64,000 nucleotides of DNA from Flavobacteriales bacterium (lineage in GTDB: Bacteria; Bacteroidota; Bacteroidia; DT-38): the NCBI GenBank assembly GCA_013214205.1, contig JABSPQ010000095.1, forward strand, positions 5,886-69,885, given 5' to 3'. Every line of letters starts with the position of its first letter. The stretch's first letter is position 1. The translations under genes and the position numbers were made by a program. Below, one piece after another: positions 20,534 to 63,100 of this stretch. Below the pieces are notes generated by a model. That model was given only the letters and a program-made list of their open reading frames with translations, was not told where the DNA came from and did no database searches.

Positions 20534-20617
20534 TAATTCACTTATCCAGTGATAACCCAAATAATTGATTTTTATTATGGTAAAGCATCCAAATTTTATT
20601 TTCTATTACTAGCAAAA

Positions 20618-36124: not shown

Positions 36125-36126
36125 TT

Positions 36127-37539: not shown

Positions 37540-38088
37540 ATTCTCCACATTAACCTCTGGGAAATTAAATTCGGACACAGGAAATATGCCTGAATCAAAG
37601 ATCTGATCTATTCTTCCAACATATATTCTCGAGATAATTGGAATATGCAAATCCGTTCTATAATACCCTTCCTTTACCCCTTTCTCCATGTTTTTAATAA
37701 CACAATCGAGTACATAGGAATTTTTGTAATCCAAAAATATCTTCCAAGTACCAGGGTAATACTTTTCCATGTCGAAATGAAAAGATGGATGAATCTCACT
37801 CAGCTTATTCGTAAAATAAATCTTTATCGCAATCATTTCGTCGATCGCATTAACGCCTTGCTCAAAAATATTATCGACAACATTTTTATCTAATTCAATT
37901 TGATATGCAATAACCGATGATACTAAATCGGGTTTGTCGTTTACAAATTGATACAACGTTTTCTTAGAGATTCCTAAGGCACGAGCAACATCATCCATAG
38001 TTGTGCTCTTAATCCCATTACGGGTAAAAAGAGCATAAACTTCAACGAGGATATTTTCAAATCTGGCATCCATGGCACAAAAGAACAA
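37540..38088 (-). CDS. TetR/AcrR family transcriptional regulator domain (in-frame with downstream TolC, no intervening stop)
   Basis: N-terminal HTH ...GIKSTTMDDVARALGISKKTLYQFVNDK plus a TetR C-terminal ligand domain. The reading frame continues uninterrupted into TolC. Confidence 0.65.
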
Positions 38089-38252
38089 ATTAAAAACTCA
38101 GGAAACAAATTGCATGTCAAAATGTTTCCTCTGTTTTTAACTAAATTTTACATTGCAATTCTACCTACTTGCTCATGCAGACGAGTGACGCTTTACAATA
38201 TTGTTTTCAACCTTTATTTATCGTTTTTTTACATTCTAAATAAATTGATAAC

Positions 38253-43512: not shown

Positions 43513-46500
43513 TTAGTTACCTGTATAATATACCTTTTTGGTGTTCTGCTTGTTGTTTATGGTTAACCTAACCAAGTAAATTCCTCTTTGAGCACCTTTC
43601 ATTTCTATTCGGTTTGAACCCGAATTAAGACTCATTTCATTTATTTTTCGACCTCTTATATCGTACACCTCAGCCCTACCCCTGTGGTTACTTTTGATGT
43701 TGATGGAGCCTTTTATAACACGAATTGAAAAAGATTCTGAATCTTTGTTTAAAATTCCTGTTACATTATTCACCGTTGCCGAAGCAATGTAATTTGTCCC
43801 ATTATCATCAGTAGCAGTAACAGTATATGTTCCACCGCATAAATTATCTATAACTTCTGATGTAGAACCATTTGACCAAGTATAGCTTATCGGTTCAACT
43901 GCACACCCTAGTTCTGGTTGTATTGAGCCTGCACACAAATCGGAATCATTGACATTAACTACTTCAAGTGTAATAGAATCTTCAACATTTACAGATATGG
44001 TAGTGCTTGCTGAGCAACCATTCGCATCTGTAATGTACACATCGTAATCGGTTGAAACTACTGGACCTACCACATGCGGACCGGCGCTCGGAGTTATAAT
44101 CTCATCACCAGACCACACAAATGTATAAGGGATAGTTCCACCATCTGGCGATGCAGAAATTACTGTTGTCTGTCCAATACATAATTGAGATGAACTAACT
44201 AATGAGTTTATTGTTAACTCACTAGGACTTTGTATAAAATATGTTTTTGTTACCGAACAGCCAGCTTCGTCGTAAAAGGTAGCGTCTATTTGACTACCAC
44301 TTCCTGAGACACTTCCGCATAAACTTGTTGCAGTTAAACTTCCATTGTTTCCACTAGCCCCTTCCCAAGTATGTAGATTGGGATAGTCACCATTTCCATC
44401 TGTAGTACCTCCAGAAAGTTCTACTTCTATAGAACCATCGCAAATTCCATAACAGCTTGGGTTTACCTTACTAATTAAAGTAACTTCCAATGGTGCTACC
44501 TCTAATACACATTCTTCTTGTGTTGCAGTACATCCGGCAGCATCTGTTACAGTTACATAATAACATCCAGTAGCCAAATCATCAGCAAAACTTGTAGTAA
44601 TATTATCATGAGACCATAAGTAGGCATAATCTGGAACACCTCCTGTAACCGAACTGGTTATTGAGCCATCGTCCATATCACAATGTGTTTGAGTAGACAT
44701 TAACTCCAAAATTAGTTCGTCGGCTTCGTAAATTTCATAGGTACCTGTTACCGTACATATATTGGCATCTGTTACAGTTAAATCATAGATTCCAGGACTT
44801 AAGCCGTTGATACTAAAATCAGAATGTGAGCTTGACCAAGTATAAATAGGAATGCCAGTTCCTCCAGTGTGCGGAACTACAATTGATCCGTCGTCGCTAC
44901 CATTACACGAAACACTAATAACTGTTGCTGAAATCGATAATGGCTCTGCTGGCTCAGTAATCTCATCATACAATACAGTATTACAGCCATTAGCGTCTGT
45001 AATAGTAACAGCGTAATTGTTAGCACATAAGTCTGATTTTGTGGTTAATACAATAGATGAAACGCCAAATGTTTCCTGAGATGCATTCCATCTTATATCA
45101 TAAGGTTCTACCCCGCCAACAATTTGTGTACTTGCTGTCCCATCACAATCTCCATAACATAAAATATCTGTTGTGGTTAACAAGGCATTTATTGGCTGCG
45201 CTGCTAAAATGGTTATACTACTATTTGCACAAGTCCTACATTCATTGGCATCGGTAACGCAAAAAACGTAAGAACCGGGTACAACTCCTACAACACTTCT
45301 TAAATCGTAAACGGTATCTGGAGAAGTCCATTTATAGATATATGGCATTGTTCCACCAGTTGGTATTTCGGCATATAAAGTTCCATCGGCAGCGCCATAA
45401 CATGTTATATCAGTACCAGAAGTTCCATTTAATTGAGGTCCCAATATATCGGAGATATTATAACATTCATTTATCTCGCAATTGTTGGCATCTACAATAG
45501 TAACGCAATACATTCCTGCAGAAACGTTGCTAAGTGTGTAGCCAGTTTGTCCATCATTCCAAAGTACACTGTAAATAGGGCCATTACCTCCAGCCGGAGT
45601 AATGGTAATGCTTCCATTGCTGTTACCACACGTGCTAGAAACAAAAGTAGTATCTGCAACAATTAATTCACTTGGCTCTGTGATAGTTTGACATGCCGTT
45701 ACCATGCATAAATTGGCGTCGGTAACGGTAACACAGTATTCCCCTCCACACAATTCAACCGCTGTTGCTGTAGACTGAAAAACGGTGTTCATGTCCCATT
45801 GGTAATATAAACTACCTGTACCTCCAACTGCAATTGCTGTAACCGAACCATCGCAAACTCCTCCCCAATTATTCGAATTGCAGCTAGGATCAACACCGCT
45901 AGTTAAAACATTTAAAAATGTTGGGTTGTAAATTAAGGTATTTATACTAGCCGTACATCCATTGTCGTCGGTAACTGTTACTGTTAGTGGAACAATATTA
46001 CTTCCAATTACATTATCAATACAACTTTCGCTGCCACCATTATTCCATGCATAAGTATAAAAACCAGCAACAGCTGTACCCCCTTGTGCAAAGACACAGG
46101 CCTCCCCCGATGCTTCATTAAAACACAATGGCTGACGTGCATAATTAATTAGTGCTGTTACGGGAGCAGGTTCTGTAATTACACCATTAAACTCTCTGAT
46201 ACAACCTTGGTCGGTTGTAACTGTTACGGTATAACTACCAGCACAAAGGAAAGAAGCCGTTACACCAACTTGGTTCATCGGATCATTCCATTGATATGAA
46301 GCTGGAGACCCTTCTTCTCCTCCCATAAATTCGAAAGTTGCGGTACCATTACAAAGACCATTACACGTCATATCGGTTGTAGTAACACTGCCCGTTAAAG
46401 GTGTTGGGTTATCAAGCGTAACTTCGCAAGAACCTGTGAGCAAACTATTGTCAGTAACAATTACTAAGTATGTACCAGCACATAAGCTTGTTTCTGTATC

Positions 46501-46716
46501 CGTTCCGCCCTCTCCAATTCCGTTAGCAGTTTTCCCTGTGCTCCAAACAATAGAGTAATCTGCATCGTTGCCAGAAATAGATACAGTTGCTACTCCATCG
46601 CAACCATCGGTGCACGACACGTCAGAATCTGTTGTTATGCTACAAGTTGGCGCTTGAGCAAAGATTGAATTAATTGATAAAACAAATATGGCGAGCGTAA
46701 ATAGGCTTAGTTTCAT
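43513..46716 (-). CDS. SprB-repeat cell-surface adhesin-like protein with T9SS (Por) C-terminal sorting domain
   Basis: 1067 aa. Signal peptide MKLSLFTLAIFVLSINSIFAQ. About 12 repeats of C.G..DG...V...GG..PY.Y.W...G. C-terminal ...GIYLVRLTINNKQNTKKVYYTGN tail. Confidence 0.75.
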   Translation of the reverse strand: MKLSLFTLAIFVLSINSIFAQAPTCSITTDSDVSCTDGCDGVATVSISGNDADYSIVWSTGKTANGIGEGGTDTETSLCAGTYLVIVTDNSLLTGSCEVTLDNPTPLTGSVTTTDMTCNGLCNGTATFEFMGGEEGSPASYQWNDPMNQVGVTASFLCAGSYTVTVTTDQGCIREFNGVITEPAPVTALINYARQPLCFNEASGEACVFAQGGTAVAGFYTYAWNNGGSESCIDNVIGSNIVPLTVTVTDDNGCTASINTLIYNPTFLNVLTSGVDPSCNSNNWGGVCDGSVTAIAVGGTGSLYYQWDMNTVFQSTATAVELCGGEYCVTVTDANLCMVTACQTITEPSELIVADTTFVSSTCGNSNGSITITPAGGNGPIYSVLWNDGQTGYTLSNVSAGMYCVTIVDANNCEINECYNISDILGPQLNGTSGTDITCYGAADGTLYAEIPTGGTMPYIYKWTSPDTVYDLRSVVGVVPGSYVFCVTDANECRTCANSSITILAAQPINALLTTTDILCYGDCDGTASTQIVGGVEPYDIRWNASQETFGVSSIVLTTKSDLCANNYAVTITDANGCNTVLYDEITEPAEPLSISATVISVSCNGSDDGSIVVPHTGGTGIPIYTWSSSHSDFSINGLSPGIYDLTVTDANICTVTGTYEIYEADELILELMSTQTHCDMDDGSITSSVTGGVPDYAYLWSHDNITTSFADDLATGCYYVTVTDAAGCTATQEECVLEVAPLEVTLISKVNPSCYGICDGSIEVELSGGTTDGNGDYPNLHTWEGASGNNGSLTATSLCGSVSGSGSQIDATFYDEAGCSVTKTYFIQSPSELTINSLVSSSQLCIGQTTVISASPDGGTIPYTFVWSGDEIITPSAGPHVVGPVVSTDYDVYITDANGCSASTTISVNVEDSITLEVVNVNDSDLCAGSIQPELGCAVEPISYTWSNGSTSEVIDNLCGGTYTVTATDDNGTNYIASATVNNVTGILNKDSESFSIRVIKGSINIKSNHRGRAEVYDIRGRKINEMSLNSGSNRIEMKGAQRGIYLVRLTINNKQNTKKVYYTGN

Positions 46717-46911: not shown

Positions 46912-47361
46912 TTGCTAAAAGGAACTGTTTGGGAAAATTATCAGTTGGTAATTACGCAGTGGCCAATAAGTCCTTCAGTTGCATTTCCTGCTCCATTTTT
47001 ATATCCTAGAAGGTTTCCTCCTTTTACCGATGTTACAGGACAACCTCAAGGGGTTCAGGAGGCATATCATAGAGCAGAGAAAGCAGCCAAGGCATCTTAC
47101 CCATTACAAGCTGGTTTACCCATTCCTCAATCGGGATGTTTGAATGTGACTATGGAAACATATTTCCAAAACCCCAAAGGAACGACTTTAGAAAACACAA
47201 GTTGTATTGGTTGCCACTTTGGTGCATCGGATACGGATTATAGTTGGGCATTGAAACTTAGAACATGGCCGCAGCCTTATAATCAAGGGAGGGTTAATCC
47301 TGAGGATAGTAAAAGAGCTGCTAAGCCTGGGCATGAGGTTCCGGTGACAAAGAAGAAGTAA
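46912..47361 (+). CDS. orphan ORF with a CxxCH motif, possibly a gene remnant
   Basis: 149 aa with no signal peptide. SCIGCHFG is a heme-binding-type motif. It is locally more GC-rich than its surroundings. Confidence 0.3.
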   Translation: MLKGTVWENYQLVITQWPISPSVAFPAPFLYPRRFPPFTDVTGQPQGVQEAYHRAEKAAKASYPLQAGLPIPQSGCLNVTMETYFQNPKGTTLENTSCIGCHFGASDTDYSWALKLRTWPQPYNQGRVNPEDSKRAAKPGHEVPVTKKK

Positions 47362-48518: not shown

Positions 48519-50861
48519 CTAGTTGCCAGATAGAATTACCTTTTGGGAGATGGAGCCAGTTTCTGTTCTTATTTTTAGATAATACAAACCGGGTGTTTCT
48601 GCCATTTCTAAGCTGAAGTGTTTGCCAGAAAGGTTAGTGTAGCTATTAATTAGCCTTCCTGTTACATCAAACAACTGAATGTTTACATGTTGCTGAGGAG
48701 TGCTTAAATCTATATTTAAATCGCCTTGCGTAGGGTTGGGGTAAAGCTTTACGGTGGAAGACAAATTCTGATTTTCGAGACCTGTTGCAATTAGAGATAT
48801 TTCAATTCCGCTTATTGGCGACATAGGCTCGGTCAATTCAATTGTATGTGCATCATCAAAATTATTTTCTCCATAATAGTACGTTGGATCAAAATTATCT
48901 GCATCGCTACCAAGCGCTGAGGCTAATAATTTGTAATCATCCAAACAAAGACAGGTTGCGAAGAAATCACCATTGTTGATTAGAATGGTTTGAATGATTT
49001 CTTCAGTGGATGCATCTATAACATAAAGATTACCAGTAGTAAGGGGAGTAGCATCACTTTTTACAATGCCAGTAATAGAATGAGTGCATTTTGCATCTAT
49101 GTCGATTATTTCGACAGTATGTGCGCTACAAGGATCACAATCTGTGCGAATGGTGTATGATCCAATTCCGTATTCTCTATCAGATATACCAAGCAGATTG
49201 TTTGTTTCGCCTATCAATGCCACATCGTTTAAATACCATTGCGGTGAGCAACTTAATGCGTTTGAATCTGCATTGATTAAAACTAGATTGTCATCGCACA
49301 AACCACCTAGAGAAACAGTGGTAATAGGTGTTCCAACCCATGTATTACAATCGTCAAAACAAGTGTTGTCGTTAAGGTCTGTTAGTCCATTATAATCGTC
49401 GTCGATGGCATTGTTGCAAATTTCGTTTAGGGATAGATTAAGAATAAAAACGTCGTGGTCGCCGGCAGATTCTAATATTAAGGGATCTGCACTTGGATCA
49501 AAATCAACTATATTTTTAAATCCTCCTGTCATGTATATATTGGTATTGACCACCATTCCATAGGTATATTCATTTTCTGTTCCTCCAAAAGATTCTGCCC
49601 ATACCAAGTCTCCGTTGGCATCTAATAATTGAATAAAAACGTCATTGCCGCCATTAGAGTTAAGGTACATTGTATCTGGGCCTGGATCGAAATCAGTTGT
49701 GTTTGCAAAATTTCCTGTTACTAGAATCTGGTTGTTGGGAGTAAAAGTGACATTTATTGTTGAGGCCGCAAAAGTTGTACCGCCATTCATAGAAGTTACC
49801 CAAATTAAATTTCCATTCGAATCTAGTTTCTGAATAAAATGTGCTGTTGGTGTAGTTGTAGTAGATTCTAAGATTGCAATTCCTGGATCAAGATCTATAG
49901 TCCCTGTAAAATCTCCGCATACAATTACGTTTCCAGATTGATCAGAAGCGATAGAGGTTCCTTTATTTTCTGTAGTTCCTCCAATGCTATTAACGTATTG
50001 AACATTTCCTGCGGTATCTATTTTGAGTACGAAAGCATCTGTAGATCCAATAGACGTTAAGTCAAATGCTGGATTTAGAGGGGCAAAGCTTGCCGTGTTT
50101 TCAAAGTTTCCTGTTGCATAAATATTGCCGAAATCATCGTAAGTAATGTCGTTTCCAAAATCATTGCCTGTTCCTCCAAAGGAAGTTGCCCAAACAAAAT
50201 TTCCATCGGTGTCTAACTTTTGAATAAAACCATCTGAATTGCCCGCAGATGTTATACTAAAAACTGCTCCCGAAGGATCAAAATCGACAGTATTTTGAAA
50301 TTGTCCTGTTGTATAAATATTTCCTGTTTCGTCTATGGTTAAAGAATATGCTACATTATCTCCTGAGCCAAGTAATGAATGTGCCCAAATGAAATTTCCA
50401 TCAGAATCAAGTTTCTCTATAAAAATATCTCGATTTCCTTGAGAGGTGAAACTGACTTGAGGAGTTGTATTAAATTCTACTGTACCTCGAAAACTACCTG
50501 TTACAATGATGTCTCCATTATGGTCTAACACCAAGTCTCGCATTATGTCTGCTTCAGTGCCTCCAATAGATTTAATCCAGATGAAGTTTCCATCGCTATC
50601 TAATTTAACAATAAACATATCGGAACTTCCTAATGAGGTTTGGTTTGAAACACCTATTTCTGGATCGAAGTCTACTGTTTCTAAATATTTCCCACAGATG
50701 TATAAATTGCCAGAAGGATCTTGTTGCATGGTATAAGCACCGTCTTGCAAGTGATTTCCAATAGACTTGGCCCATTCTAATTCTACACTTTGTGCCAATG
50801 TTGATAGGGTGGTTGAAAGGCTGAATAGAATGGTTATTATGGTAATTAGCAGTGCTCGCAT
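48519..50861 (-). CDS. SBBP beta-propeller-repeat secreted protein with T9SS C-terminal sorting domain
   Basis: 780 aa. Signal peptide, at least 8 repeats of D.DGN..W..S.GG...D....D..GNIY.TG.F..T.DFDP. C-terminal LYPNPTQGDLNIDL...GLYYLKIRTETGSISQKVILSGN. Confidence 0.7.
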   Translation of the reverse strand: MRALLITIITILFSLSTTLSTLAQSVELEWAKSIGNHLQDGAYTMQQDPSGNLYICGKYLETVDFDPEIGVSNQTSLGSSDMFIVKLDSDGNFIWIKSIGGTEADIMRDLVLDHNGDIIVTGSFRGTVEFNTTPQVSFTSQGNRDIFIEKLDSDGNFIWAHSLLGSGDNVAYSLTIDETGNIYTTGQFQNTVDFDPSGAVFSITSAGNSDGFIQKLDTDGNFVWATSFGGTGNDFGNDITYDDFGNIYATGNFENTASFAPLNPAFDLTSIGSTDAFVLKIDTAGNVQYVNSIGGTTENKGTSIASDQSGNVIVCGDFTGTIDLDPGIAILESTTTTPTAHFIQKLDSNGNLIWVTSMNGGTTFAASTINVTFTPNNQILVTGNFANTTDFDPGPDTMYLNSNGGNDVFIQLLDANGDLVWAESFGGTENEYTYGMVVNTNIYMTGGFKNIVDFDPSADPLILESAGDHDVFILNLSLNEICNNAIDDDYNGLTDLNDNTCFDDCNTWVGTPITTVSLGGLCDDNLVLINADSNALSCSPQWYLNDVALIGETNNLLGISDREYGIGSYTIRTDCDPCSAHTVEIIDIDAKCTHSITGIVKSDATPLTTGNLYVIDASTEEIIQTILINNGDFFATCLCLDDYKLLASALGSDADNFDPTYYYGENNFDDAHTIELTEPMSPISGIEISLIATGLENQNLSSTVKLYPNPTQGDLNIDLSTPQQHVNIQLFDVTGRLINSYTNLSGKHFSLEMAETPGLYYLKIRTETGSISQKVILSGN

Positions 50862-52195
50862 TATCTTAAATTATAGGTGATTCCAATTCCAAATTTTAAA
50901 TAATTACTGGATTGAAGTGGATAGTGGGTTTGATTTTCAAGTTGATTTAACATTGTTGAGTATCCCAATTCTGTACTAATTTCTAATTGTGAATTGATTA
51001 AATAATTAATAAAAATCTTGTTTGAGGTGAACCACAACAGCTCGGTAGATTTTTCTTTTGTAGCAACAGCTCCTCTGCTATCGATGTATTGGCCGGTGTG
51101 AAAAACAAATGCAGGAGTAATCTGAAAAGAAAATTTTATAGCAATAATTTTATTTTGGACGATTGGAAACACAAGAGAGATAGGGAGTAATAAAATCTGT
51201 TTAGGTGCATTGATTTGGTTGTTGACTAGATTAGAATCTCTTACTTCAACATCTATACTATCACCAATGTAAACGCGAATGGTGTCGGGAGCAATTCCTC
51301 CAATATAAGAGCTGTGCACTTCAAACTCCTTGGTGGTGTATGTAGTATCTAAATAATATTGGCTCGAAATAGTGGAGTTGTATTTCATCGTTTGGATGCC
51401 TAACCCCACACCAAACTTAGGCATGTGATAGGTGATATTTAGGTTGGATAAGTAAGAGGGATCAACCGTCTGTTCAAAATCAACATCCATAATTGATGAA
51501 GATGCTGACGACAAAGTTGGCATTAAATAAGACGCGCTTAAGTTGAAAGAGAAGTATCTGTCTTTGTTTTTATCGATTGTAATTGTGGTGTCTTGCTGAA
51601 TTAAATCCTGATTCGCAATAGACGAAGGAGCAATTATTTTTGGTTCAGGTGCTATTTTGTTCTTTTTTAAGTTTGCTGTATCAAGCGGTAAGTGTGGTTC
51701 TTCATTGTCTACAATATGTTCTTCTATTGTCGAAGAAGAATCTTTAGTAATACTTGGTGGTCTAGGCTTTTCTGTAGGAGATATTTTCGTTAACAATGGC
51801 TGTAAGGAGGGTGGAGGAGGGATTTCTCTTTCTGCAATAGGAATGTAATCTTCCTTAAAAATAGATTGATAAGACTTTGGTTTATATATGGCAATAGTAT
51901 TTCCTACATATCGGAAGTTGATGTTGTAATTCGATAGCAGTTCTTTGAGAACCTCACGAATCGTAGCATTATGAACATTGATGGATGTTTTTTCTGAAGA
52001 AGGAATTAAACTGCTTTTTATGGAAAGCGATGTTTTTGCAATCTTAGCCATTTCCACTAAAACTTCTTGAACCGATTTGTTCTCTACTCTAAGATCTATT
52101 GTTTTATCAAGAATACTTTCTTGAGCGACTAAACCTGTGATGCTACAAACAAATATTAGGACTGATATAAAAAACGTTAAAAGACCTCTGTTCAT
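50861..52195 (-). CDS. STN (secretin/TonB short N-terminal) domain protein fused to a small C-terminal beta-barrel; outer membrane component of the ECF/FecR module
   Basis: 444 aa. Signal peptide, then STN-like VENKSVQEVLVEMAKIAKTSL...IREVLKELLSNYNINFRYVGNTIAIY. A Pro-rich linker precedes an amphipathic beta-strand C-terminal half. Its TAATG stop overlaps the start of the SBBP gene. Confidence 0.55.
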   Translation of the reverse strand: MNRGLLTFFISVLIFVCSITGLVAQESILDKTIDLRVENKSVQEVLVEMAKIAKTSLSIKSSLIPSSEKTSINVHNATIREVLKELLSNYNINFRYVGNTIAIYKPKSYQSIFKEDYIPIAEREIPPPPSLQPLLTKISPTEKPRPPSITKDSSSTIEEHIVDNEEPHLPLDTANLKKNKIAPEPKIIAPSSIANQDLIQQDTTITIDKNKDRYFSFNLSASYLMPTLSSASSSIMDVDFEQTVDPSYLSNLNITYHMPKFGVGLGIQTMKYNSTISSQYYLDTTYTTKEFEVHSSYIGGIAPDTIRVYIGDSIDVEVRDSNLVNNQINAPKQILLLPISLVFPIVQNKIIAIKFSFQITPAFVFHTGQYIDSRGAVATKEKSTELLWFTSNKIFINYLINSQLEISTELGYSTMLNQLENQTHYPLQSSNYLKFGIGITYNLR

Positions 52196-52209: not shown

Positions 52210-53310
52210 CTAACAACCTTCTCCTGAAATGATCAGTTTGTTTTTTTCTTCTTTAACCTTAAGTCCTAAAGTGATTTCGAAGAGCTCGAAAATTTCTTCT
52301 ATTGATAAGTTATCGTAGCGAGCAGTTATTTGGCAATTACCCAGTTGAGGATCTTCAAACACCAAATTAATCTGGTAATGCAAGTTCAATTGATTAATTA
52401 TTTTTTTCAAAGGCTTATCAACGAAGGTTAAAATTCCGTTGTGCCACGACAGATAGTTTTGATTGTCGTTGGCTGCTTGTACTGCTGTATAATTACCAGT
52501 TTGAAGTGTGCCCTTTTCATCAGCTGTCAATAAAACTTTGTTGGTATCGTCTTTATGGTAAAATTCAACGCTTCCTTCTTTAACAGTTACCACAATAGAA
52601 TCGGGGTTGTTTGCATTTACATTAAATGAAGTACCCTTAACTGCTATTCTGGCATTGCCAACATGAATGATAAATGGTTTTACGTCTGGTTGAACTAGGA
52701 AAAAACCTTCTCCTTCAAATTCTACAATTCTTTCATCAGATGAAAACGAAGGGGGGTAAGTTAGCTTAGATTTGTTATTCAAGATCACGTTTGAACTGTC
52801 GTGCAGTAATACTGAATTTTTTTCTGTTGTGTTGGTATTGATTACAATGTCGTTGGATTGTTCAATAGGATCGGCATGTGCTACTACAACCTTTTGATCT
52901 GAATTATCTTGGAATAAGAAATAAGCTAATCCTAAACCGGCCAATAAAACGGCAGCAATTCTTAAGATGAGTTTATCCGATTTCTTTTCTGCTGCAATCG
53001 GTATAATCTTTTTGTCCTTCGACTTGTCTACGGAAGTTTTAACATAGGTGGAAGGCTTAGCGAAGGGAGGATTGCTTTTGGCTTCATTTCTGATTTTTAG
53101 AAAATCTTTTTTGTATCTATCAGCATCCGATTCTTGATCCCATTCCTTTTTTAGCGCATTAAATTGGAAAATTTTCTTTGCCGAGTCGTAATCATTTTTA
53201 ATGGCAGGGTCGGAAATCATTAATTGATCTAACTCCGCTTTTTGCTCCCTAGTGGCTTCACCTGAAAGGCATGCATATATTAATTCGATATGTTGGTTTG
53301 GGTTACTCAT
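52210..53310 (-). CDS. FecR family anti-sigma factor / transmembrane sensor (FecR + DUF4974)
   Basis: 366 aa with a single TM helix (ILRIAAVLLAGLGLAYFLF). FecR-like periplasmic domain and a C-terminal DUF4974-like ...LKKIINQLNLHYQINLVFED... Confidence 0.7.
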   Translation of the reverse strand: MSNPNQHIELIYACLSGEATREQKAELDQLMISDPAIKNDYDSAKKIFQFNALKKEWDQESDADRYKKDFLKIRNEAKSNPPFAKPSTYVKTSVDKSKDKKIIPIAAEKKSDKLILRIAAVLLAGLGLAYFLFQDNSDQKVVVAHADPIEQSNDIVINTNTTEKNSVLLHDSSNVILNNKSKLTYPPSFSSDERIVEFEGEGFFLVQPDVKPFIIHVGNARIAVKGTSFNVNANNPDSIVVTVKEGSVEFYHKDDTNKVLLTADEKGTLQTGNYTAVQAANDNQNYLSWHNGILTFVDKPLKKIINQLNLHYQINLVFEDPQLGNCQITARYDNLSIEEIFELFEITLGLKVKEEKNKLIISGEGC

Positions 53311-53319
53311 GATTCACAT

Positions 53320-53925
53320 CTAATAAAATGACACACAGATTGGGGTGAGAGATTCAATGAAATCCAATAAAACAATAGATAAAATGATAATTGGCAGAAA
53401 CTCTGTGAGATGAATTTGCATTTTCTGTACCATGGTCATTATGTCATATTTTACTTTTCCAACATTAAGATTAAGTTTGCTCGCAACCTCTTTAGCAGTG
53501 AATCCTTCAAATCTGTTCAGTCTAAAAATTTGTTGACGAAGGTCATCTTCTTCCTGAAGGACTTCTTCCATCTTTAGAATTATTTCCATCTCAGTGGTAA
53601 AATCTGGGGTGAAACAATCTGTTTGGCTGGTCGCTACAAGATCGATTTTATTTGATCGGTGTTTCTCGTCTCTAATATAGTTTAAGCTGTTGCGGTGTAC
53701 TGCGCGTAGAAGATAGCCGAGCACATTGGATTCAATCTCAACCTCGTTTCGCTTTTCCCAAAGTTTAATGATGGTGTGGTGTGCTACTTCTTGTGCACTC
53801 TCTTGATCCTTAATTATTTTTCGGGCTTGCTTGTAAAGTATGGAGAAGTAATTGTCGTAAATGTATATGTACGCCTCTTCGTCATTCTTACGTAGCAATT
53901 CTAGAATATTTACCTTGTTAATCAA
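53320..53925 (-). CDS. ECF (sigma-70 family, group 4) RNA polymerase sigma factor
   Basis: Region 2 ...YIYIYDNYFSILYKQARKII.D...AQEVAHHTIIKLWEKR and a region 4 HTH ...FTAKEVASKLNLNVGKVKYDIMTMVQKM. Confidence 0.7.
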   Translation of the reverse strand: MINKVNILELLRKNDEEAYIYIYDNYFSILYKQARKIIKDQESAQEVAHHTIIKLWEKRNEVEIESNVLGYLLRAVHRNSLNYIRDEKHRSNKIDLVATSQTDCFTPDFTTEMEIILKMEEVLQEEDDLRQQIFRLNRFEGFTAKEVASKLNLNVGKVKYDIMTMVQKMQIHLTEFLPIIILSIVLLDFIESLTPICVSFY

Positions 53926-54198
53926 CTTTTCACCAAAAAATTACGGGCAAATGTACTTGTTATTAAGGTTGTAGGGCCTATTAACTCTGATAATTAGAAT
54001 ATGTTAAGCGAATGGTTTTTATATTGAGAAATGTAAGCTGATCAATATGCAGTGTATCAGTTAATTGTAAGTCGTGTCAGTGTTTTGTTGATAAAAAAGT
54101 GACTTTTTATCGAACTCGGTTGAAGTGCTTTGTGTCATGTATATCAGGTGGGAAAATTAACTTCCATCGATTGAGAAAATTAACACAAACTAGCAGTT

Positions 54199-57100
54199 AT
54201 GAATACAATTATTTCTTCAAATTTTAAGGCTTTCAAATTATTAATCGTGGTGTTGACAGTAATGTTTACGCAAATAATGAGTGTATCTGCTCAGTGCGAC
54301 CCAACTGTTACCAACAATGCAGTACTACTATATGTCAATGATCAACCGCTTACTAGTTCTTTAACGGACGGCTCTTGGTTAGAAAGCTACTACGATTATC
54401 AATTTAATTTCTATCAGGGTGGTGTGCAAGTGGCGTCTCATGAAATGGAGAGAGATGCCGAAGGGAATTTAATTTTATTAAAATATATTGACTTAGAAGG
54501 GATTTTTGTAGATGAAACCTACAATGTGAAAATTGCGATAAAAAATGCTGAAGGTGATAATTGGTCATGCGACGGAGACCTTCGTACGCTTCATCTCATT
54601 AACGATGCACAGGTTTTATATTGCGGCGAACATACGTTGCCAACAAACGTTACCGATAAAACTTGGTTTGCTGATTACGATGGATATCGATTTAACTTTT
54701 ATCAAAATAGCGAACTCGTTGCTTTTCACGAAATGAAAACAGACGAAGAAGGAAAGTTTATTATTGTTCAATATGGCGATATTGATGGATTAAATTTTGG
54801 GCAAACTTATGATGTGGCCATTGCAATTAAGCAAGATGGTGATGAAGCATGGTCGGTCGACGGTGTAAGTTGTTCCGTTACCTTTCCAACATGTTCAGCT
54901 AATAACCCTGCTGTAAATGTATCTACAATCATAGAAGATGCTTCTTGTGAAGAAGCGAGTAATGGAAAAATTGTAGCAACTGTTTCTGGTGGTACATCTC
55001 CTTTTGTGTATGAATGGAGCGATGAGTTAAAACAAACAAATTCAACTGCTGTTGAATTATCAGCCGGAACTTATACGGTAACGGTAACTGATAAGGTAGG
55101 TTGTTCATCGACCCAAACTTCAACTGTAACGCAAAAAGGTGGTGATTATCTCGTTAATGGCGTTGGAACAAGCACTACTTGTCATGGAGGAAATGACGGA
55201 AGTGCCGAAGTTGTAGTAGTGCAATCGGGCGAATCACAAACGCTTACCTGTGTTTGGGGAGAAGAAGCTGGTGTTCAGACAAGTTGCACTGCTACAGGTT
55301 TATCGGCAGGTTCTTATCCTGTAACCGTGGTAAATCAAAATGGTTGCAGTCCTAAATATCAAATTTCGGCTAGTGTGAAAAATGGTAGTGATTACCTTAT
55401 TACAGGTGTCGGAACAAGCACTACCTGTGATGGAGGAAATGATGGAAGCACCGAAGTTGTAGTAGTTCAATCCGAAGAAGAACAAACGCTTACATGTGCG
55501 TGGGGACCAGAAGTTGGAGCTACGGAAAATTGTACTGCTACAGGTTTATCGGCAGGTTCTTATCCTGTAACCGTAGTAAATCAAAATGGTTGCAGTCCTA
55601 AATATCAAATTTCCGCTAGTGTGAAAAATGGTAGTCATTATCTGGTTCAAGGTATTGGAACAAGCACTACTTGTTATGAAGGAAATGACGGAATTGCTGA
55701 AGTTGTAGTAGTACAATCTGAAGAAGAACAAACGCTTACGTGTGCGTGGGGACCAGAAGCTGGTGTTCAAACCAGTTGTACCGCTATTGGTTTATCGGCA
55801 GGTACATATCCTGTAACCGTAACAAATCAAAATGGCTGCAGCCCAACATATCAAATTACGGTTGAGGTGAAAAATGGTGTAAATCCTACAGGTAACTTGG
55901 CTCTGAGTATAATAACAGAAGTTACGAACGGGGTTTGTTCGGAAGAAGGCAATGGGCAAATAGCTACCGAGGTAAATGGTGGTACTACACCTTTTAGCTA
56001 CGCTTGGAGTGATGTCGCAGATCAAACCAGTGCAGTTGCAACAGGATTAGAATCCGGAACATATACGGTTACGGTAACGGATTTAATAGGGTGTTCTACT
56101 TCGAAAAGTGCTTCTGTTTTACAAGAAGGCAGCTCTTTAACAGATGTAGAATTTACTATAAGGAATGTGCAATGTAATGGTACCCTGGGAGCTGCTTTTA
56201 TAGATAAGGTTGTAGGCGGAAATACTTGGCCAACAGGATATTCTTATGCATGGTCTACTGGACAATCTGGTACGCATGCAGATGGCCTTAATATAGTGGA
56301 TGATTTACCTGCAGGAGAATATACAGTAACGGTTACAGATGCTTTGGGTTGTTCAATGGAAGAGACGTTTAGTATTGAAGCAGAGGATTGCGGCTGCGCT
56401 CATATAACTTGGATTAACGCTACTCAAGATGGAAAATGGGAGACAGCATCCAACTGGTCTACTGGAACCGTACCAAGTCCAAAAGATGCAGCCATTTTTA
56501 AAGATGCAACTGAGCAATATCCGTATTCAAATACAGATGCGGTTTTAAGCACCAATACATCTGTAGGACAAATAATAATAGAAGACAGTTACTCAGCTAC
56601 GGTTGATTTAAGTAATACTAATGAAGTGAAGCTTTCAAAACTAGAATTCGAATGTGCAACGGGCGACTTAACCATTAATGGCGGCTCGTTCAAAGCTCCA
56701 AATGATTTGTTCATGGATGGTAATCTATTAGTAGGTTATGCTAGTTACCTTCATGAAAACGGAACACTAAATTTTGTTGGAAATCTTCAGCAAACAATTA
56801 CTTCAATCGATGAAATAATTCTTCATGATTTCATAATCAACAATGAAGAAGGTGCCCTTTTATTAGGCCCAGATTTTATTATAGAAAATAGCCTTGACTT
56901 CCAATCAGGAATTATTTCTAATAGCAACAACCAAATCGTAATATTCGAAGACAATGCTGTTGCCTTAAATGCCTCTAATAACAGTTATGTGGAAGGTAAA
57001 GTCATGAAAACAGGAACCACTGATTTTGAATTTCCTGTAGGAAAAGCTGGAGAATATAGAATGATTGGGATTTCTGCACCTACAGAAAATTCGCACTTTG

Positions 57101-60100
57101 TGGCAGAGTACTTTAAAGGGCCAACACCAGATGTACAAGCAGATAATTTGCTGATGATAAATTACCTTGAATATTGGGAGTTATCGAGACCATTTGGTTT
57201 AGGATCCACTAATATTACTCTTTCATGGAATGAAAATAGTAGACATTTCAATCCGCTAGCAAGCATGGTGGTGGCGCAAGACATAAACAACGAATGGACA
57301 GATAAAGGGAATGGGTACGTTCATTCAAATGACTATGGCTACACTGGTGTAATTACCAGTAATAACGTAATAAGCTTTACCCACAACAAATTTACCATCG
57401 GATATAATGCAATTAAATTAGGATGTGGAACTAGTTCTTTGGCAGCTAATCAAAATATTGATAATTATCCTATTCCGCCAATTGATCCTTTCAACATATC
57501 TCCAGATAATATTGAACCTGATAATACGGCTCCAGTGGCCCCGATTTTATTTATAAAACCAGCAATAAATACAGTCCCTTTAGATCAGATTCTTTTTGAT
57601 GCTCCTTCAATAGCGGCCGCTCAATCAGCTGGTGCTACAGCGGAGCCCACTTATATTATCCCTGTGGCATTTCACTTAATTTATGATGACGATGGTGTAA
57701 GCAGCCCACTTGTAACCAAGGAAAGAATTGATGCTGCAATGAACGTATTGAATGAGGCATTTATAGGACAAGCGTCTATTGCGAATGTCACAGATCATGA
57801 TATGAGAATATCATTCTGTTTGGCGGAGTACGATCCTAATGGGGGTATTATTGATTACGATGGTTGTACAAATAATTATTCAATTCCGGTTTCAGAGGCT
57901 TTATTCTCATTAAGTGGAACAGATATGGTCACAATTGTCAATGCCACCAAACAATGGAGTAACAAAGAATATATGAATATTTATGTAGTAGATGATATTG
58001 TTAGTGATGACGGGCTGTCTATAGCAGGATTTGCAAAGTTACCCAGTGGATTATCTACAATAAATGGATTTGATGGTCTTGTAATGCGAAATAACATGGT
58101 TGGAGACAATGGCTTCTCAGCGATTCCTGCCCCCCCTCATCCATTAAATAATAATTATGACTTAGGACTAACGTTGGTACATGAAGCAGGACACTGGCTG
58201 GGATTGTATCACGTATTTGATCTTTATAACCTCAACCCAGCTAACCAGTGCGAAGATATTTCTTTTAATCAAGAAATATCAGATGCTACATGTAGTCATA
58301 CCGGTGATAGAGTTTGTGATACTCCTCCTATGTTTGGCACAAGCCCAGGAACACCCGTATTATGTAATTGGCTATCTGGAAACGAAAATACATGTATTGA
58401 AAGTGTAACATATGATGGTGTTCTTGAAGATAGAGATGATCCTACGGATAATTATATGTCTTATACCTCTGATCGATACGGAGATGGAGAAGCATGTAAA
58501 TATACATTTAGCGAGGGGCAAGGATTTAGAATGCGTCAACAAATAGGAGCTTATAGAAAGGACCTCGTAGGTACTTCAAACCTTATGTCAAAAATTACAT
58601 GTCCGTTTGATGCAATTATCGATGCTGAATTTACTGCGGACATAACTCAAATATGTATTGGAGAAAGTGTGAACTTTGAAGCAACTCAGCATCAAACTAG
58701 CACTGCAACATATACATGGGATTTTGGTGATGGAAATATTATTTCAGGTACAGGAATTGGTTTTGTAACAGTTAGTCATAATTATACCTTAACGAGTATA
58801 ACAGAAGCCTATACTGTTAGCTTAACAATTTCTGAAGCAGACCTCACTGCCTGGCCTAATTCTTCAACAGAAATAAAGAGTGAATTAACTTATGTGTCTT
58901 TATGTCCAACTATAGCAAGTTCAGAAGGACAATGGTATTTTAATAATGCTTGTGCATTGGATTTTTCTTCCGGGAAACCAGTTGCAAACAATAGTGCATA
59001 CGATACTGACTTAAATCAACCAACGATATACTCGCCATCATACTACCCTTCACTTTCTCAAAGTGATGCCAACGGTCAATTGGTGTTTTATGCTTCAGGA
59101 ATGACTGTATGGAATTCTCAGCACCATGAGGTCGAAACATTTAGTGGTTCGGGTCGAGTTTTATTATCTGTCTTAAAACCAAAGTCGAACCCACTTGATT
59201 TAGATGAATATTATATATTCTATCAAATTGATGGGATCCAAGCTGGTGCTGGGATTTATTATTCTATTTACGATCCCAATACTGATTTTTTATCCACGGG
59301 AACTCAAATAACTGGTCCGGGTGCTCAAAATAACTCACTGCAAACTAATGTAAGCACTTCTATGGAGGTAATACCTCAATGTAATGGAACTGATTATTGG
59401 TTGATATTTTTTGATGAGGCAGAAACTAATTTCTATGTAGGTGGTTTAACAGCAAACGGTGTTCAAACATTCACTTCTAATCCTTCAGGAATCCCCTCAT
59501 TTGGTCAAGATATATTAATAAGGATTAATGCCTCACCATCCGGAGATAAACTAATTATTTCATCCATGTGGTCGCAAACTTTTGGTGCATATTTATATAA
59601 TTTCGACATAGCAACAGGAGAGATTTCTAACGGTTTACAGATTGAAACAATAGGTGTTGAGGCTGCTAGTTTTAGTCCTAATTCTGAAGTGATATATCTT
59701 ATTGTTAAGAATTCTCAACCTACATTACATGTTGGGCTTAAGGCATATGATTTAACTAATCTCGCCAATATTGAAAGTAAACTATTAACCCCTTTTATAC
59801 CATGGGGTGGACCCAATAATCATCCGTGGTATTCGGATCTGCAAATAGGGCCTGATGGGAAAATCTATATCGCTGAATTAGGCGTCGGTAATGTTTTATC
59901 GACTCCCCTTCCTCCCAAAGGCAGGTTTTTATCTGTCATTAATTTCCCAGATGCTTATTCCAATTCTGGCTTTAATAAACGAAGTGTTCCTTTAAAAAGC
60001 CCATCATCAGCTATTAAATGGTCTTATAGACGGTTACCTCGAATAAACCAGGCTAAACCTATTCCAACCCCTGCACCAACTAGCTATGATGTTGTTACGG

Positions 60101-63100
60101 GATCCTCATGTAGGGAAGTTGAATTTTATGCTCCTGAATGTATCAATGTTACTTCATGGGATTTTGGTGATATGTCTAGTCCATCCACCGACACCGATCC
60201 AATACATGTTTTTGCTAATAGTGGTACTTATAATGTAACACTAAATTTTATTAAAAATGGTGCAATTTATTCTATTACTCAAACATATACTTTTGATCCA
60301 GTAATTGCGCCAACAATAACAGGCCCTGGTGCTGCATTGGGTTTGGTTTGCTCTTATGAGCTTGAAGTTCCTGGGCAGTTTTATAGTATCACAGGTAATT
60401 ATTCTGCTTGTAATTGGTCGGGAACTGGAGATGCAAATTCAATAATGGCTAACAATAGCCCAATTGTTGGAGCAAATTGGAATGCTTCACCGAGCTCTGG
60501 TGAGATTTCTGTGAGTTGTGTTGATGAAAATGCTTGTACAGTAAATAGTACCACCGGACCAATTATAATTTCATCTATCGATGGGTCAATTACGAGTTCT
60601 ATTGATCCTAGTTGCACGACTCTTGGTTCTGCTACTGTAACTATTATTGGGGGTGTTTCACCATATGAGGTGGAATGGTCTGGTGGGAATAGTAACAATG
60701 TAGTAGGTTATACATCTAATACTCATTCTGCTTCAGGATTGGCATATAGTCTTACGGGACAATCTGTTGTTGTTGCGGACGATAATAATTGCTTATTTCA
60801 AGACATTATTTACTTCAATAATGTAGGAGCTGTTTCTATTGATCAGGTCTATCTTATAGATCCTTCGTCAATAGGAGGAAGTAATGGGAGTATCGCTTTT
60901 CAATTGGGTTTAGGTAGTGGTGATAATTTTGATATTCAATGGTCTGATGCTTCATTTAACGAAACAGGAGTATTGGAGGGTCCAGTTAATTTAACGGGAT
61001 TGGTTGATGGAATGTACGATGTAACAATCACGAACAATGTTACATCATGTTCTATAGTGCAATCATTTAACTTGTTAGAACCAATAGACTGTTTTGCCTC
61101 TGCGAATATTATAACTCTATCAACAGCTTTGGTAGATCCATCTTGTATGCTTTCTGGTGATGGGACCATTGAAATAACAGCTACAGGAGGAACTTTACCT
61201 TATGATTACAATTGGTCTAATGGGGAAACAACAGAAGATTTAGTTGACCTTTCAGGAGGAGATTACACCATTCAAGTAACAGATGGCAATGGTTGTATTA
61301 CAAGTGCATTGTTCACCTTGACGGAGCCAGCAGAACTTGCTGTGTCAGGAACACCTGTTAATCTCACATGCTTTAGTTTGAGTAATGGAAGCATTGATTT
61401 AACTATTTCAGGAGGAGCTTTACCTTATGATTACGATTGGTCTAATGGAGAAACAACAGAAGACTTAGTTAATCTTTCAGGAGGGGATTACACCATTGAA
61501 GCAACAGATGACAATGGTTGTATCACTACCTCATTATTTACTTTAATAGAACCGTTAGAACTAACTTTGTTGGGTACTATAAATGATCCCTCATGCTTCG
61601 GTTTGAGTGATGGAAGCATTGATCTAACTATTTCAGGAGGAACTTTACCTTATGATTACAATTGGTTTAACGGAGAAACCTCAGAAGACTTAGTTAATCT
61701 TACAGGGGGAGATTATACCATTCAAGTAACAGATGGTAATGGTTGTATTACATCTTCATTGTATACCTTGACAGATCCAACTGAATTAGTTTTATCAGGT
61801 ATTCCTGTAAACCCTTCCTGTAACCTATTTTGCGGCGGCGCAATAGGGGATGGATCAATAGATTTAACCGTTATTGGCGGAACTGCGCCATATAATTATT
61901 TATGGTCTAATGCAGCTACATCTGAGGACTTAACCTCGCTTTCAGCTGGCCCATACGAAGTTACCGTTACCGATGATAACAATTGCGAAAGCACTACCTC
62001 AGCCACTCTTTTCAGTGGAAATCTAAATGTTGAACTTCAAGATTTATCTGTAGGCGCAACATGTGCAAACGCTAGCGGTGAGATACAAACTTCGGTTACA
62101 AGTGTTTTCTACTCTAATAATTGTGAACTCACTGAATCGGTTTGTTCTGGATTAGGTACAAATGAAATGTTCATAGATATACCTGTTAGCGGTTTAACTG
62201 GTGCAACTATTACTAATAATACGGTGGCAGCACTTTGTATTGATGGTTTCCAAGCAACAGAAGGCCATATGAGTATACAATTATATCCACCAGGAGCGGA
62301 TTTAACTGAGATGAAGTTGGTCACTGTTCTAGGAATTATGGGATCACCGTGGGGGCAATCAGAATACAATGACGTCTGTTTTAAAAATGGAAATTACACC
62401 GAAATTAGAGATGATATAAGTCCTTTTAATGGAACTTATTACGCCCCATTGGATCATAGCGATTTTGCCGGAATGGGGATGTCTGTTGATGGAACTTGGA
62501 AGGTGAGATTTGGATGGATATGTAATGATGAAGGAACTGGTACTTTCTTACCATGGACACTTGGGGAAAACGCAATTAGTCTACATATAAATGAAGTATC
62601 ACCAAACATCACCTACAACTGGGAAAGCACCACAACTAGTGTTCCATCGGGTGCCAATCCTTCTAATTTGTTAGCAGGTACATATACAGTTACTGTTGAT
62701 GACGGTGGCGCTTGTCCTCCTGTAGAAACCGTCGAAATTCTTAATGACTTAGGAATATGGGACGTGTACACCGAGGGTGAGTACTGCGATGGATTTGGAG
62801 GCTCCGTAGAATTTTATCATACAAATAGTAATCTTCTTACCTATGAATATAATATGGATGGAATTTTACAATCATCTACGGAAGATTGGCATTATCCATT
62901 AACACCAGGTATATATGGAATATCGGTTACTGATATAGATGGCTGTGAAAGGGTTTATAACGAAGTTATAACTGGTTCATCTATTGATTGTGCGACACAG
63001 CAATGCCATGCCAATTTGGGAATCACATCAATTAGTGAAAGTCCTGGTTCTACTTGTGCTTTGCTTGATGCTGATCAGGCGTTTACCCCATGTCCTGGAA

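Follow-up and report, generated by a model that had tools for sequence, protein, structure and literature searches.

What can an STN (signalling) domain do when it is carried by a protein that has none of the other parts of a TonB-dependent transducer? Cell-surface signalling is, to our knowledge, regarded as the province of TonB-dependent transducers (TBDTs), VreA being the sole exception that has been studied. The question is raised by an open reading frame of 444 codons in the window, by which we mean the whole 64,000-nt stretch of contig JABSPQ010000095.1 (Flavobacteriales bacterium) that was analysed. The answer has to account for the company that the gene keeps, for the fold of its product and for the relatives of both.

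The operon of the STN-barrel gene

The gene is the third of four that are tightly packed in the order ECF sigma factor, FecR anti-sigma factor, STN-barrel protein and T9SS cargo:

53320..53925, minus strand: ECF sigma factor, 201 aa, operon gene 1
52210..53310, minus strand: FecR-type anti-sigma factor, 366 aa
50861..52195, minus strand: STN-linker-small-barrel protein, 444 aa, ATG start, operon gene 3
48519..50861, minus strand: T9SS type-A cargo, 780 aa, with SBBP beta-propeller repeats and a C-terminal sorting domain

The module is compact. The sigma and FecR genes are separated by 9 nt, the FecR and STN-barrel genes by 14 nt, and the STN-barrel and cargo genes by -1 nt, the stop of the former and the start of the latter sharing 1 nt in the junction TAATG. 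The sigma factor matches Sigma70_r2 (E 1.6e-7) and Sigma70_r4_2 (E 1.1e-6) in Pfam, TIGR02937 (sigma70-ECF; 53.5 bits against a cut-off of 42.9 bits) in NCBIfam, and the Bacteroidota-type model TIGR02985 (E 1.4e-23). The FecR protein (PF04773, E 4.4e-15; PF16344, E 1.1e-12) is laid out as a cytoplasmic N-terminal part, a single hydrophobic segment at about residues 113-133 (judged by eye), a periplasmic FecR domain at 156-249 and a FecR_C domain at 294-361. The cargo is recognized by Por_Secre_tail (E 1.5e-13) and SBBP (E 1.9e-8) in Pfam and by TIGR04183 (46.7 bits against a cut-off of 23 bits; E 2.2e-12). A preliminary description of this DNA had noted the 1-nt overlap with a T9SS cargo gene, which these matches bear out, and had supposed a connection with anti-sigma signalling. 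The case for such a connection is better than was then known because the ECF sigma and FecR genes adjoin upstream, and the synteny is kept in every relative found. The sigma/anti-sigma pair appears to control the downstream T9SS cargo. On the other side of the operon, from 54184 onwards, lies a divergent giant adhesin gene.

A scan for sigma-70 promoters and terminators returned fewer sites than shuffled sequence, Bacteroidota promoters lying outside the models of the scan. No separate STN-less TonB-dependent receptor was found near the operon among the window ORFs tested; such a ‘split transducer’ arrangement occurs in other loci (L031, L041 and L057).

Anatomy of the STN-barrel protein

The protein divides into the following parts:

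52124..52195, minus strand: signal peptide, residues 1-24, a hydrophobic N-terminus
51881..52108, minus strand: STN (signalling) domain, residues ~30-105, PF07660
51557..51880, minus strand: Pro-rich linker, residues 106-213, 108 aa, pLDDT 24-38
50864..51556, minus strand: predicted small outer-membrane beta-barrel, residues 214-444 (231 aa), ~10 strands in the AlphaFold model
51236..51346, minus strand: insertion between barrel strands 4 and 5, residues ~284-320, with the motif Y[IV]xDS...D

The preliminary description had read the protein as a signal peptide and STN domain, a Pro/Ser/Thr-rich linker of about 100 aa and a C-terminal half made of beta strands, with neither TonB box, plug nor 22-strand barrel, and this reading holds. 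The hydrophobic N-terminus ends in A24 and Q25, which are invariant between the window protein and its 459-aa homologue P0002; judged from the sequence, the protein is probably cleaved before Q25. The STN model PF07660 covers residues 66-105 (E 1.2e-10; 41.4 bits against the Pfam cut-off of 28.4 bits), and residues 37-103 give a weak FecR_C-like match that marks the extent of the entire STN fold. Proline makes up 15% of the linker, and proline, serine and threonine together 31%.

The transducer parts that would be expected to follow are absent. Plug, TonB_dep_Rec and CarboxypepD_reg have no match in the 444-aa protein even at E<=1 (Pfam), and neither PF07715 nor PF00593 matches its C-terminal half at E<=10. 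A regular expression for the TonB box ([DE]xVVVxG[YF] or a proteobacterial-type motif) finds none in all six family sequences; the same expression, as a positive control, finds [DE]EVVVxG[YF] in 10 of 12 full-size SusC-type FecR neighbours. Pfam detects no TonB_C in the 444-aa protein, and sequence searches of the PDB, one using the full-length protein and another its STN region, gave nothing significant. The protein resembles TBDTs (FecA, FpvA, FoxA and the STN-bearing SusC-like proteins of Bacteroidota PULs) in its N-terminal STN domain, its slot after an ECF sigma factor and FecR, and its predicted place in the outer membrane. It differs from them in having no TonB box, plug, CarboxypepD_reg or 22-strand barrel, and in the ~108 residues that separate STN and barrel, where TBDTs have a short TonB-box linker.

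In place of a transducer barrel, residues 214-444 are predicted to form a small outer-membrane barrel of the OmpA/OmpW class, a prediction based on AlphaFold models from two to three sequences together with homologues. The barrel-only model, built from a three-sequence MSA, has a mean pLDDT of 72.5 and a pTM of 0.66, the strand blocks lying mostly at 89-95. Compared with the PDB by Foldseek, it finds the OmpA transmembrane domain, OmpW, OprG and NspA (TMq 0.47-0.55, TMt 0.57-0.70, probability 1.00), with no TBDT among the matches, and it reaches a TMq of only 0.19-0.25 against the FadL-family structures FadL, TbuX and TodX. The window protein reaches no Pfam or NCBIfam barrel model, PF13568 (OMP_b-brl_2) giving no match at E<=10, but this model, with its gathering score of 27 bits, scores 29.7 in P0002, 35.8 in L030 and, just below the threshold, 25.8 in P0003. 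OMP_b-brl_2 and OmpA/OmpW-class barrels share the predicted fold of residues 214-444 but stand alone, whereas the protein described here adds an STN domain on a long tether and a conserved 37-residue insertion. The insertion is of low pLDDT (model residues 80-116), yet Y309, D312, S313 and D320 within it are invariant in four lineages. Outer-membrane proteins in which a small OmpA-like barrel bears an STN domain by way of a long tether are rare. With ~10 strands and 231 residues, the barrel cannot be a TonB-energised transporter.

An STN domain in the position after FecR is typical of a SusC-type transducer, and the gene might accordingly be taken for the decayed or truncated remnant of a SusC protein or other TonB-dependent transducer that has retained the STN domain only. 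This alternative, which the preliminary description had itself raised, is effectively refuted. The ORF is intact, and P0002, of the same size and architecture and found on three independent contigs, aligns with it from end to end (BLASTP E 1e-40, 26% identity); the 444-aa ORF is therefore no chance ORF. The C-terminal half shows no similarity to SusC-type proteins from related loci (lowest E ~0.3) and closes into a small barrel in the model. Nor are there frameshifted leftovers of a plug or barrel downstream, since the next gene begins 1 nt before the stop.

Relatives, gene order and cargo

Word-indexed protein searches with the STN-barrel protein, a two-sequence profile and a five-sequence profile recovered nothing but the query protein, P0002 and P0003, the match to P0003 in the last search being circular because the near-identical L016 was in the query. 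An exhaustive HMMER search with residues 251-444 recovered one relative only, and DNA-pattern scans of genome contigs and metagenome contigs with the STN-barrel protein recovered nothing. Going by way of FecR instead did bring results. The preliminary description had proposed looking for other STN and small-barrel proteins adjoining T9SS cargo, and four further divergent metagenomic lineages (P0002, L006/7, L016/P0003 and L030) proved to have this architecture at the corresponding position. A FecR gene lies directly upstream in every relative (P0002, P0003 in L084, L006/7, L016 and L030), and the FecR protein of the window is 49% identical to the one that precedes P0002. Pfam annotation bears out the presence of both sigma factor and FecR upstream in L084, and phmmer does so in L006, L030 and L084. 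L006, P0003 and L030 match the window protein weakly (phmmer E between 2e-5 and 0.03, the databases containing 35-64 sequences), and these three loci may share its architecture by convergence.

Other STN proteins that lack a plug occupy the same slot in related loci. The STN domain is present in 25 of 35 downstream proteins of the sampled FecR clade, in which plug-less STN partners outnumber canonical SusC-type transducers. Of 49 complete genes that lie downstream in related FecR loci, 22 encode proteins that combine a plug-less STN domain with CarboxypepD_reg. These proteins are like the STN-barrel protein in having neither plug nor TBDT barrel and in following sigma factor and FecR, but they possess CarboxypepD_reg, and their C-terminus looks soluble and is not related to the barrel. 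That their C-termini might be the same barrel was considered and rejected, the hhalign probability being <7%.

STN domains occur in secretins too. The domain could in principle serve a secretin-like or peptidoglycan-associated role, its adjacency to FecR being incidental, and the best NCBIfam match of the protein is indeed the N-terminus of a T3SS secretin, although a very weak one (E 0.005, 15.6 bits). We regard this as highly improbable: the adjacency to FecR recurs in all five lineages, Pfam finds no secretin domains in the 444-aa protein, and STN domains are common downstream of FecR in the sampled clade.

Cargo lies directly downstream of the STN-barrel gene in all three complete loci and belongs to three unrelated families, against 1 of 10 for the other plug-less STN loci (Fisher one-sided p 0.014). 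In four loci the gap from the STN-barrel gene to the next gene is -1, 27, 26 and 23 nt. The cargo of the window and of L006 has a type-A CTD; that of L030 alone is type B, and no gene of PorP/SprF size follows it. T9SS cargo is dense in the window, where it makes up ~10% of long ORFs, and the cargo association comprises three loci. No PorP/SprF gene was found in the window, even beside its two type-B cargo genes.

An outer-membrane beta-barrel encoded next to T9SS cargo calls to mind the shuttle and anchor proteins PorP/SprF, and the preliminary description had drawn this comparison, which does not stand. PorP-like proteins are 14-stranded barrels of the FadL family (PMC9143113), and their genes lie immediately downstream of type-B CTD cargo, type-A cargo being handled by PorV (PMC12618676). 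PorP-like proteins have no STN domain and match TIGR03519 / PF11751; the protein described here is the opposite on both counts, with no match to either model when the whole protein is taken at E<=1, or the barrel, P0002, P0003, L006 and L030 at E<=10. Identity with PorP/SprF is rejected on the ~10-strand, 231-residue barrel, the position of the gene upstream of type-A cargo and the lack of an HMM match.

A functional parallel with PorP/SprF, close to the speculative cargo anchoring of the preliminary description, would be a barrel that binds or shuttles the co-encoded cargo at the cell surface, as PorP/SprF does with type-B cargo, and uses the tethered STN domain to report the presence, export or ligand binding of that cargo to FecR. 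Consistent with this are the close linkage to cargo in the four loci, the cargo of differing families downstream of all three complete ones, the type-B cargo of L030 without a shuttle-sized gene after it, and the precedent that PorP-like barrels bind their cargo (PMC9143113). Nevertheless, we think it unlikely. No member matches a PorP/SprF model at E<=10, the predicted fold differs from the 14-strand FadL type (PMC9143113), the cargo of the window and of L006 belongs to the class recognized by PorV (PMC12618676), and shuttle genes lie downstream of their cargo, whereas the barrel gene lies upstream. Furthermore, the barrel motif is conserved across differing cargo families, and this speaks against specific recognition of the passenger domains.

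A proposed signalling module without TonB

The reading that we favour, and think on balance probable by analogy with studied systems, is that the STN-barrel protein is the outer-membrane partner in a non-canonical, TonB-independent sigma/FecR cell-surface-signalling module. In known systems, the signalling domain of the transducer binds the anti-sigma factor's C-terminal domain when no signal is present and guards it against proteolysis (PMC11637429). The predicted OmpA/OmpW-class barrel would anchor the protein in the outer membrane, and the flexible Pro-rich tether would reach into the periplasm with the STN domain at its end. There the STN domain would dock on the FecR_C domain of the co-encoded FecR, as FecA does with FecR and FoxA with FoxR, a pair for which a beta-augmentation interface has been modelled, and would shield FecR from proteolysis, so that the sigma factor is kept sequestered. 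An event at the barrel, with the invariant Y[IV]xDS...D insertion as the leading candidate for its sensor, would free the STN domain. Degradation of FecR would follow, and transcription of the operon by the sigma factor would have the translationally coupled T9SS cargo as its output. What the analysis establishes is the domain anatomy, the lack of the TBDT parts, the conserved order of sigma factor, FecR, STN-barrel and cargo genes, and the barrel fold of the models; by analogy we infer the binding of STN to FecR and its protective role, as well as the nature of the signal, the regulon of the sigma factor and any physical link to the cargo. It counts against the reading that we know of no mechanism by which a small barrel would transmit a signal without TonB coupling.

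The nearest precedent is VreA (PA0674) of the P. aeruginosa PUMA3 / VreAIR system, which demonstrates that the STN partner of a sigma/anti-sigma pair in charge of secreted proteins can do without a TBDT barrel (PMC2729926). VreA, too, is a small STN protein encoded with an ECF sigma factor and a FecR-type regulator, and its system controls secreted proteins rather than iron uptake (PMC2729926). The two proteins differ in that VreA is mostly soluble in the periplasm, with a TolA/TonB_C-like C-terminal domain, whereas the C-terminal domain here is a predicted integral outer-membrane barrel; they also come from different phyla, and vreA precedes the sigma gene, whereas the STN-barrel gene comes after FecR. 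The best reading is that the STN-barrel protein is conceptually like VreA but, by prediction, anchored in the outer membrane.

The barrel might alternatively be a mere anchor, the tethered STN domain reporting outer-membrane assembly or the spacing between the membranes. Failed insertion of the barrel, or distortion of the envelope, would then free FecR for degradation in the style of a stress response. The absence of ligand-gated machinery (no plug, no TonB box) suits such an arrangement. So does the linker, which in P0002 is acidic and 117 aa long; its sequence is not conserved between these two close homologues but its length is similar, which fits a spacer. The invariant motif in the barrel insertion suggests a specific function beyond anchoring, however, and the output is one specialised secreted protein, not envelope-repair genes. 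A sensor of envelope integrity is, to our minds, distinctly unlikely.

A bolder and rather doubtful proposal is that the small barrel senses the co-encoded T9SS cargo, or the surface ligand of that cargo, by means of the conserved Y[IV]xDS insertion and relays this TonB-free through the tethered STN domain to FecR. Each such cargo would then have a private feedback circuit, and type IX secretion would be tied to transcription by a trans-envelope signalling route not previously described in Bacteroidota. Full-text searches of the literature turned up no paper in which FecR-type signalling is connected with T9SS cargo.

The STN-barrel protein would represent a second way of presenting an STN domain to FecR without a TBDT, namely on a small outer-membrane barrel that has no plug and no coupling to TonB. 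If the model is right, it raises the question of how a signal arises without TonB, and it would offer a handle on the regulation of individual T9SS cargo genes in Bacteroidota.

An STN protein with a predicted small barrel and its operon

The reading frame of the STN protein lies at 50861..52195 on the minus strand, starts with ATG and encodes 444 aa, as in the preliminary description, and the layout proposed there has been borne out:

N-terminus: signal peptide
Residues 66-105: STN domain (Pfam PF07660, E 1.2e-10, 41.4 bits against a cut-off of 28.4)
Residues 106-213: linker, 15% Pro, of very low model confidence

Even at E<=1, Pfam gives no match to Plug, TonB_dep_Rec or CarboxypepD_reg in the protein, in line with the claim that plug and receptor barrel are absent, and an NCBIfam scan gave no meaningful match. 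Of the four features that define a TonB-dependent transducer (TBDT), the protein lacks three.

The C-terminal half reached no barrel HMM, and its structure was approached with AlphaFold. The full-length model, from a two-sequence alignment, is poor overall (pLDDT 49.6), with the strands in residues 214-443 scoring 70-85. The model of the barrel only (residues 205-444, three-sequence alignment) has a mean pLDDT of 72.5 and a pTM of 0.66, its strand blocks mostly reach 89-95, and about ten strands are seen (8-10, these being shallow-alignment models), with a single low-confidence insertion of 37 residues separating strands 4 and 5. Its top Foldseek matches in the PDB are all small outer-membrane barrels, namely the OmpA transmembrane domain (TMq 0.50, TMt 0.67), OmpW (0.53, 0.67), OprG, NspA and a Legionella Dot/Icm-associated porin. 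No TonB-dependent receptor is among the matches, and FadL-family structures align poorly (TMq 0.19-0.25). The half is thus predicted to be a small barrel, as had been suspected. Two related proteins pass the Pfam cut-off for OMP_b-brl_2: the closest homologue, P0002 (29.7 against 27 bits), and that of metagenomic locus L030 (35.8 bits, E 1e-8).

The gene is accompanied on the same strand by sigma and anti-sigma genes, a context that the preliminary description did not use:

53320..53925 (-): ECF sigma factor, upstream of the FecR gene
52210..53310 (-): FecR-type anti-sigma factor (domains FecR and FecR_C), directly upstream of the STN-barrel gene
Downstream of the STN-barrel gene: 780-aa protein with SBBP repeats and a type-A T9SS sorting domain (Por_Secre_tail E 1.5e-13; TIGR04183 46.7 against 23 bits)

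The last of these is T9SS cargo, as proposed, and the one-base overlap was found again: the stop codon of the STN-barrel gene and the start of the cargo gene meet in TAATG. The intergenic gaps are 9, 14 and -1 nt, so the four genes, from sigma factor to cargo, are closely packed into a single unit, followed after 142 nt by an MBL-fold hydrolase gene. Divergent from the sigma gene, across 258 bp, runs a giant stop-free frame (54184..63999, plus strand, >3,272 aa, extending past the window end) with SprB repeats, a Peptidase_M43 domain, PKD domains and DUF7619; given this orientation, it could share the regulation of the operon.

Relatives and association with T9SS cargo

Proteins of similar sequence are very rare. 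A word-indexed search of 5.8 billion proteins returned only the protein itself, which NCBI lists under a Flavobacteriales MAG as 'STN domain-containing protein'. When residues 251-444 were compared exhaustively, by HMMER, with 1.84 billion cluster representatives, one relative came up, P0002 (459 aa). The two proteins align over their whole lengths (E 1e-40, 26% identity); P0002 has the same architecture and is encoded directly 3' of a FecR gene whose product is 49% identical to the window FecR. As direct searches gave no more, further relatives were sought by inspecting the gene after FecR in 80 metagenomic loci, which yielded STN plus small barrel in three more lineages: L006/L007 (457 aa) and L016/P0003 (425 aa), both having C-terminal motifs in common with the window protein, and L030 (395 aa). 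Similarity by phmmer is weak (E 2e-5 to 0.03, in databases of 35-64 sequences), and they are therefore treated as the same architecture and as probable distant homologues. Upstream sigma and FecR genes were confirmed in L006, L030 and L084 (the P0003 locus), and a motif in the barrel insertion, Y[IV]xDS...D, is invariant in four lineages.

Other STN-plus-small-barrel genes beside T9SS cargo, for which a search had been advised, do exist. In all three small-barrel loci with a complete downstream gene, this gene encodes cargo: an SBBP propeller with a type-A C-terminal sorting domain (CTD) in the window, a beta-helix protein in L006 (TIGR04183, 29.2 against 23 bits) and a 221-aa protein with a type-B CHU_C domain in L030 (41.2 against 27 bits). 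The corresponding gene of L084, for a beta-helix protein, is cut off at the contig edge, and in the P0002 loci it encodes an LRR protein with a signal peptide, incomplete in L002, where the contig ends. In L001 (MAG GCA_022560775.1, 2290-3980) this gene stops at 87 codons beside an IS3-like element that carries two transposase ORFs; as the LRR gene runs on in L002 and L003, only that assembly has the insertion. The barrel gene and its downstream gene are separated by -1, 27, 26, 23 and 120 nt. At other plug-less STN loci a CTD occurs in only 1 of 10 immediate downstream genes (Fisher one-sided p = 0.014 against 3/3), an association that is suggestive but not proven, the numbers being small and T9SS cargo making up about 10% of long ORFs in the window.

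A resemblance to PorP/SprF had been noted earlier, and membership of that family was rejected. Neither TIGR03519 nor PF11751 matches any small-barrel member, even at E<=10. PorP-like proteins belong to the FadL family, form 14-stranded barrels and bind type-B cargo (PMC9143113), whereas about ten strands are modelled here; PorP-like genes come directly after the cargo gene and all type-A cargo goes via PorV (PMC12618676), whereas this gene lies upstream and its cargo is type A.

Elsewhere in the window, further cargo lies close to the operon, a 1,067-aa SprB-repeat protein with a type-A sorting domain (43513..46716, minus strand). Two convergent genes (15188..17347, plus; 17933..20602, minus) both encode type-B (CHU_C) cargo with no PorP/SprF-like gene beside them, their neighbours being lumazine-binding (riboflavin synthase-like) and radical-SAM CofH/MqnC-like proteins; their products would be 'orphan' type-B substrates. 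An RND efflux operon (31359..38097, minus; AcrB-like, HlyD-like, OEP/TolC-like) includes a stop-free frame, 36130..38097, matching both TetR_N and OEP and therefore probably two genes, or possibly a fusion. A 149-aa TTG-start ORF (46912..47361, plus) in a slightly GC-richer intergenic stretch has a CxxCH motif (CIGCH) and no Pfam match; it may be a cytochrome-c-like gene fragment or not a gene.

Other putative partners of FecR

Among 49 complete genes downstream of FecR, 12 encode at least 1,000 aa (the only class taken as SusC-type, on length), 7 encode 700-999, 22 encode 480-699 and 3 encode 380-479 aa. In 35 sampled products below 1,000 aa, STN was found in 25, CarboxypepD_reg in 24, Plug in 6 and a TonB-dependent barrel in 3, so plug-less STN partners are common in this FecR clade. 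The usual one combines CarboxypepD_reg with a C-terminus that looks soluble and was rejected as an equivalent of the barrel (hhalign probability <7%); the small-barrel version is the rare sub-type.

The 480-699-aa class, directly after sigma and FecR (L008, L010, L017, L019-L021, L026, L029, L031, L033, L035, L036, L040, L041, L046, L051, L054, L057, L062, L068, L076), outnumbers the SusC-type transducers in this FecR clade. Individually scanned members are mostly STN plus CarboxypepD_reg, lacking plug and TBDT barrel, with weak LolA_like or DUF5686 hints in the C-termini, and the class appears uncharacterised. In L031 (9202-11580), L041 (8900-11251) and L057 (9999-12341) the plug-less STN gene is followed by one for a ~785-aa TonB-dependent receptor with CarboxypepD_reg and Plug domains and no STN, which suggests a 'split transducer', signalling domain and transporter being separate polypeptides. 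Other unusual FecR neighbours are a 178-aa DUF3575 small barrel lacking STN, 8 nt after FecR (L014 1943-2479; L015 6971-7507), a 290-aa TonB_C-domain protein (L081 6773-7645) and a FecR_C/STN-like, aspartyl protease and PDZ protein followed by a second STN plus CarboxypepD_reg protein (L013 6768-8384).

A possible signalling mechanism

The system would work like cell-surface signalling. In FoxA/FoxR, contact of the signalling domain with the anti-sigma factor is present without signal and shields the latter from proteolysis (PMC11637429), and in P. aeruginosa VreA, an STN protein without a TBDT barrel, serves such a pair and controls secreted proteins (PMC2729926); the window protein's C-terminal domain is not VreA-like. 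By analogy, the barrel would anchor a tether of ~108 residues, at the end of which the STN domain may keep FecR protected; loss of this contact would free the sigma factor to transcribe the operon, cargo gene included. As plug and TonB box are both absent, passage of a ligand energised by TonB cannot be what triggers it, and the Y[IV]xDS...D motif, which is invariant in four lineages, is the best candidate for the sensing element.

In full-text literature searches, neither a link between FecR-type signalling and T9SS nor an STN-plus-small-barrel protein came up; the ECF reclassification paper calls the Bacteroidota FecI-like group ECF240 carbohydrate-scavenging and experimentally unaddressed. 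Represented only by a handful of metagenomic sequences, the small-barrel type departs clearly, and in a testable way, from the transducer paradigm and may be linked to secretion.
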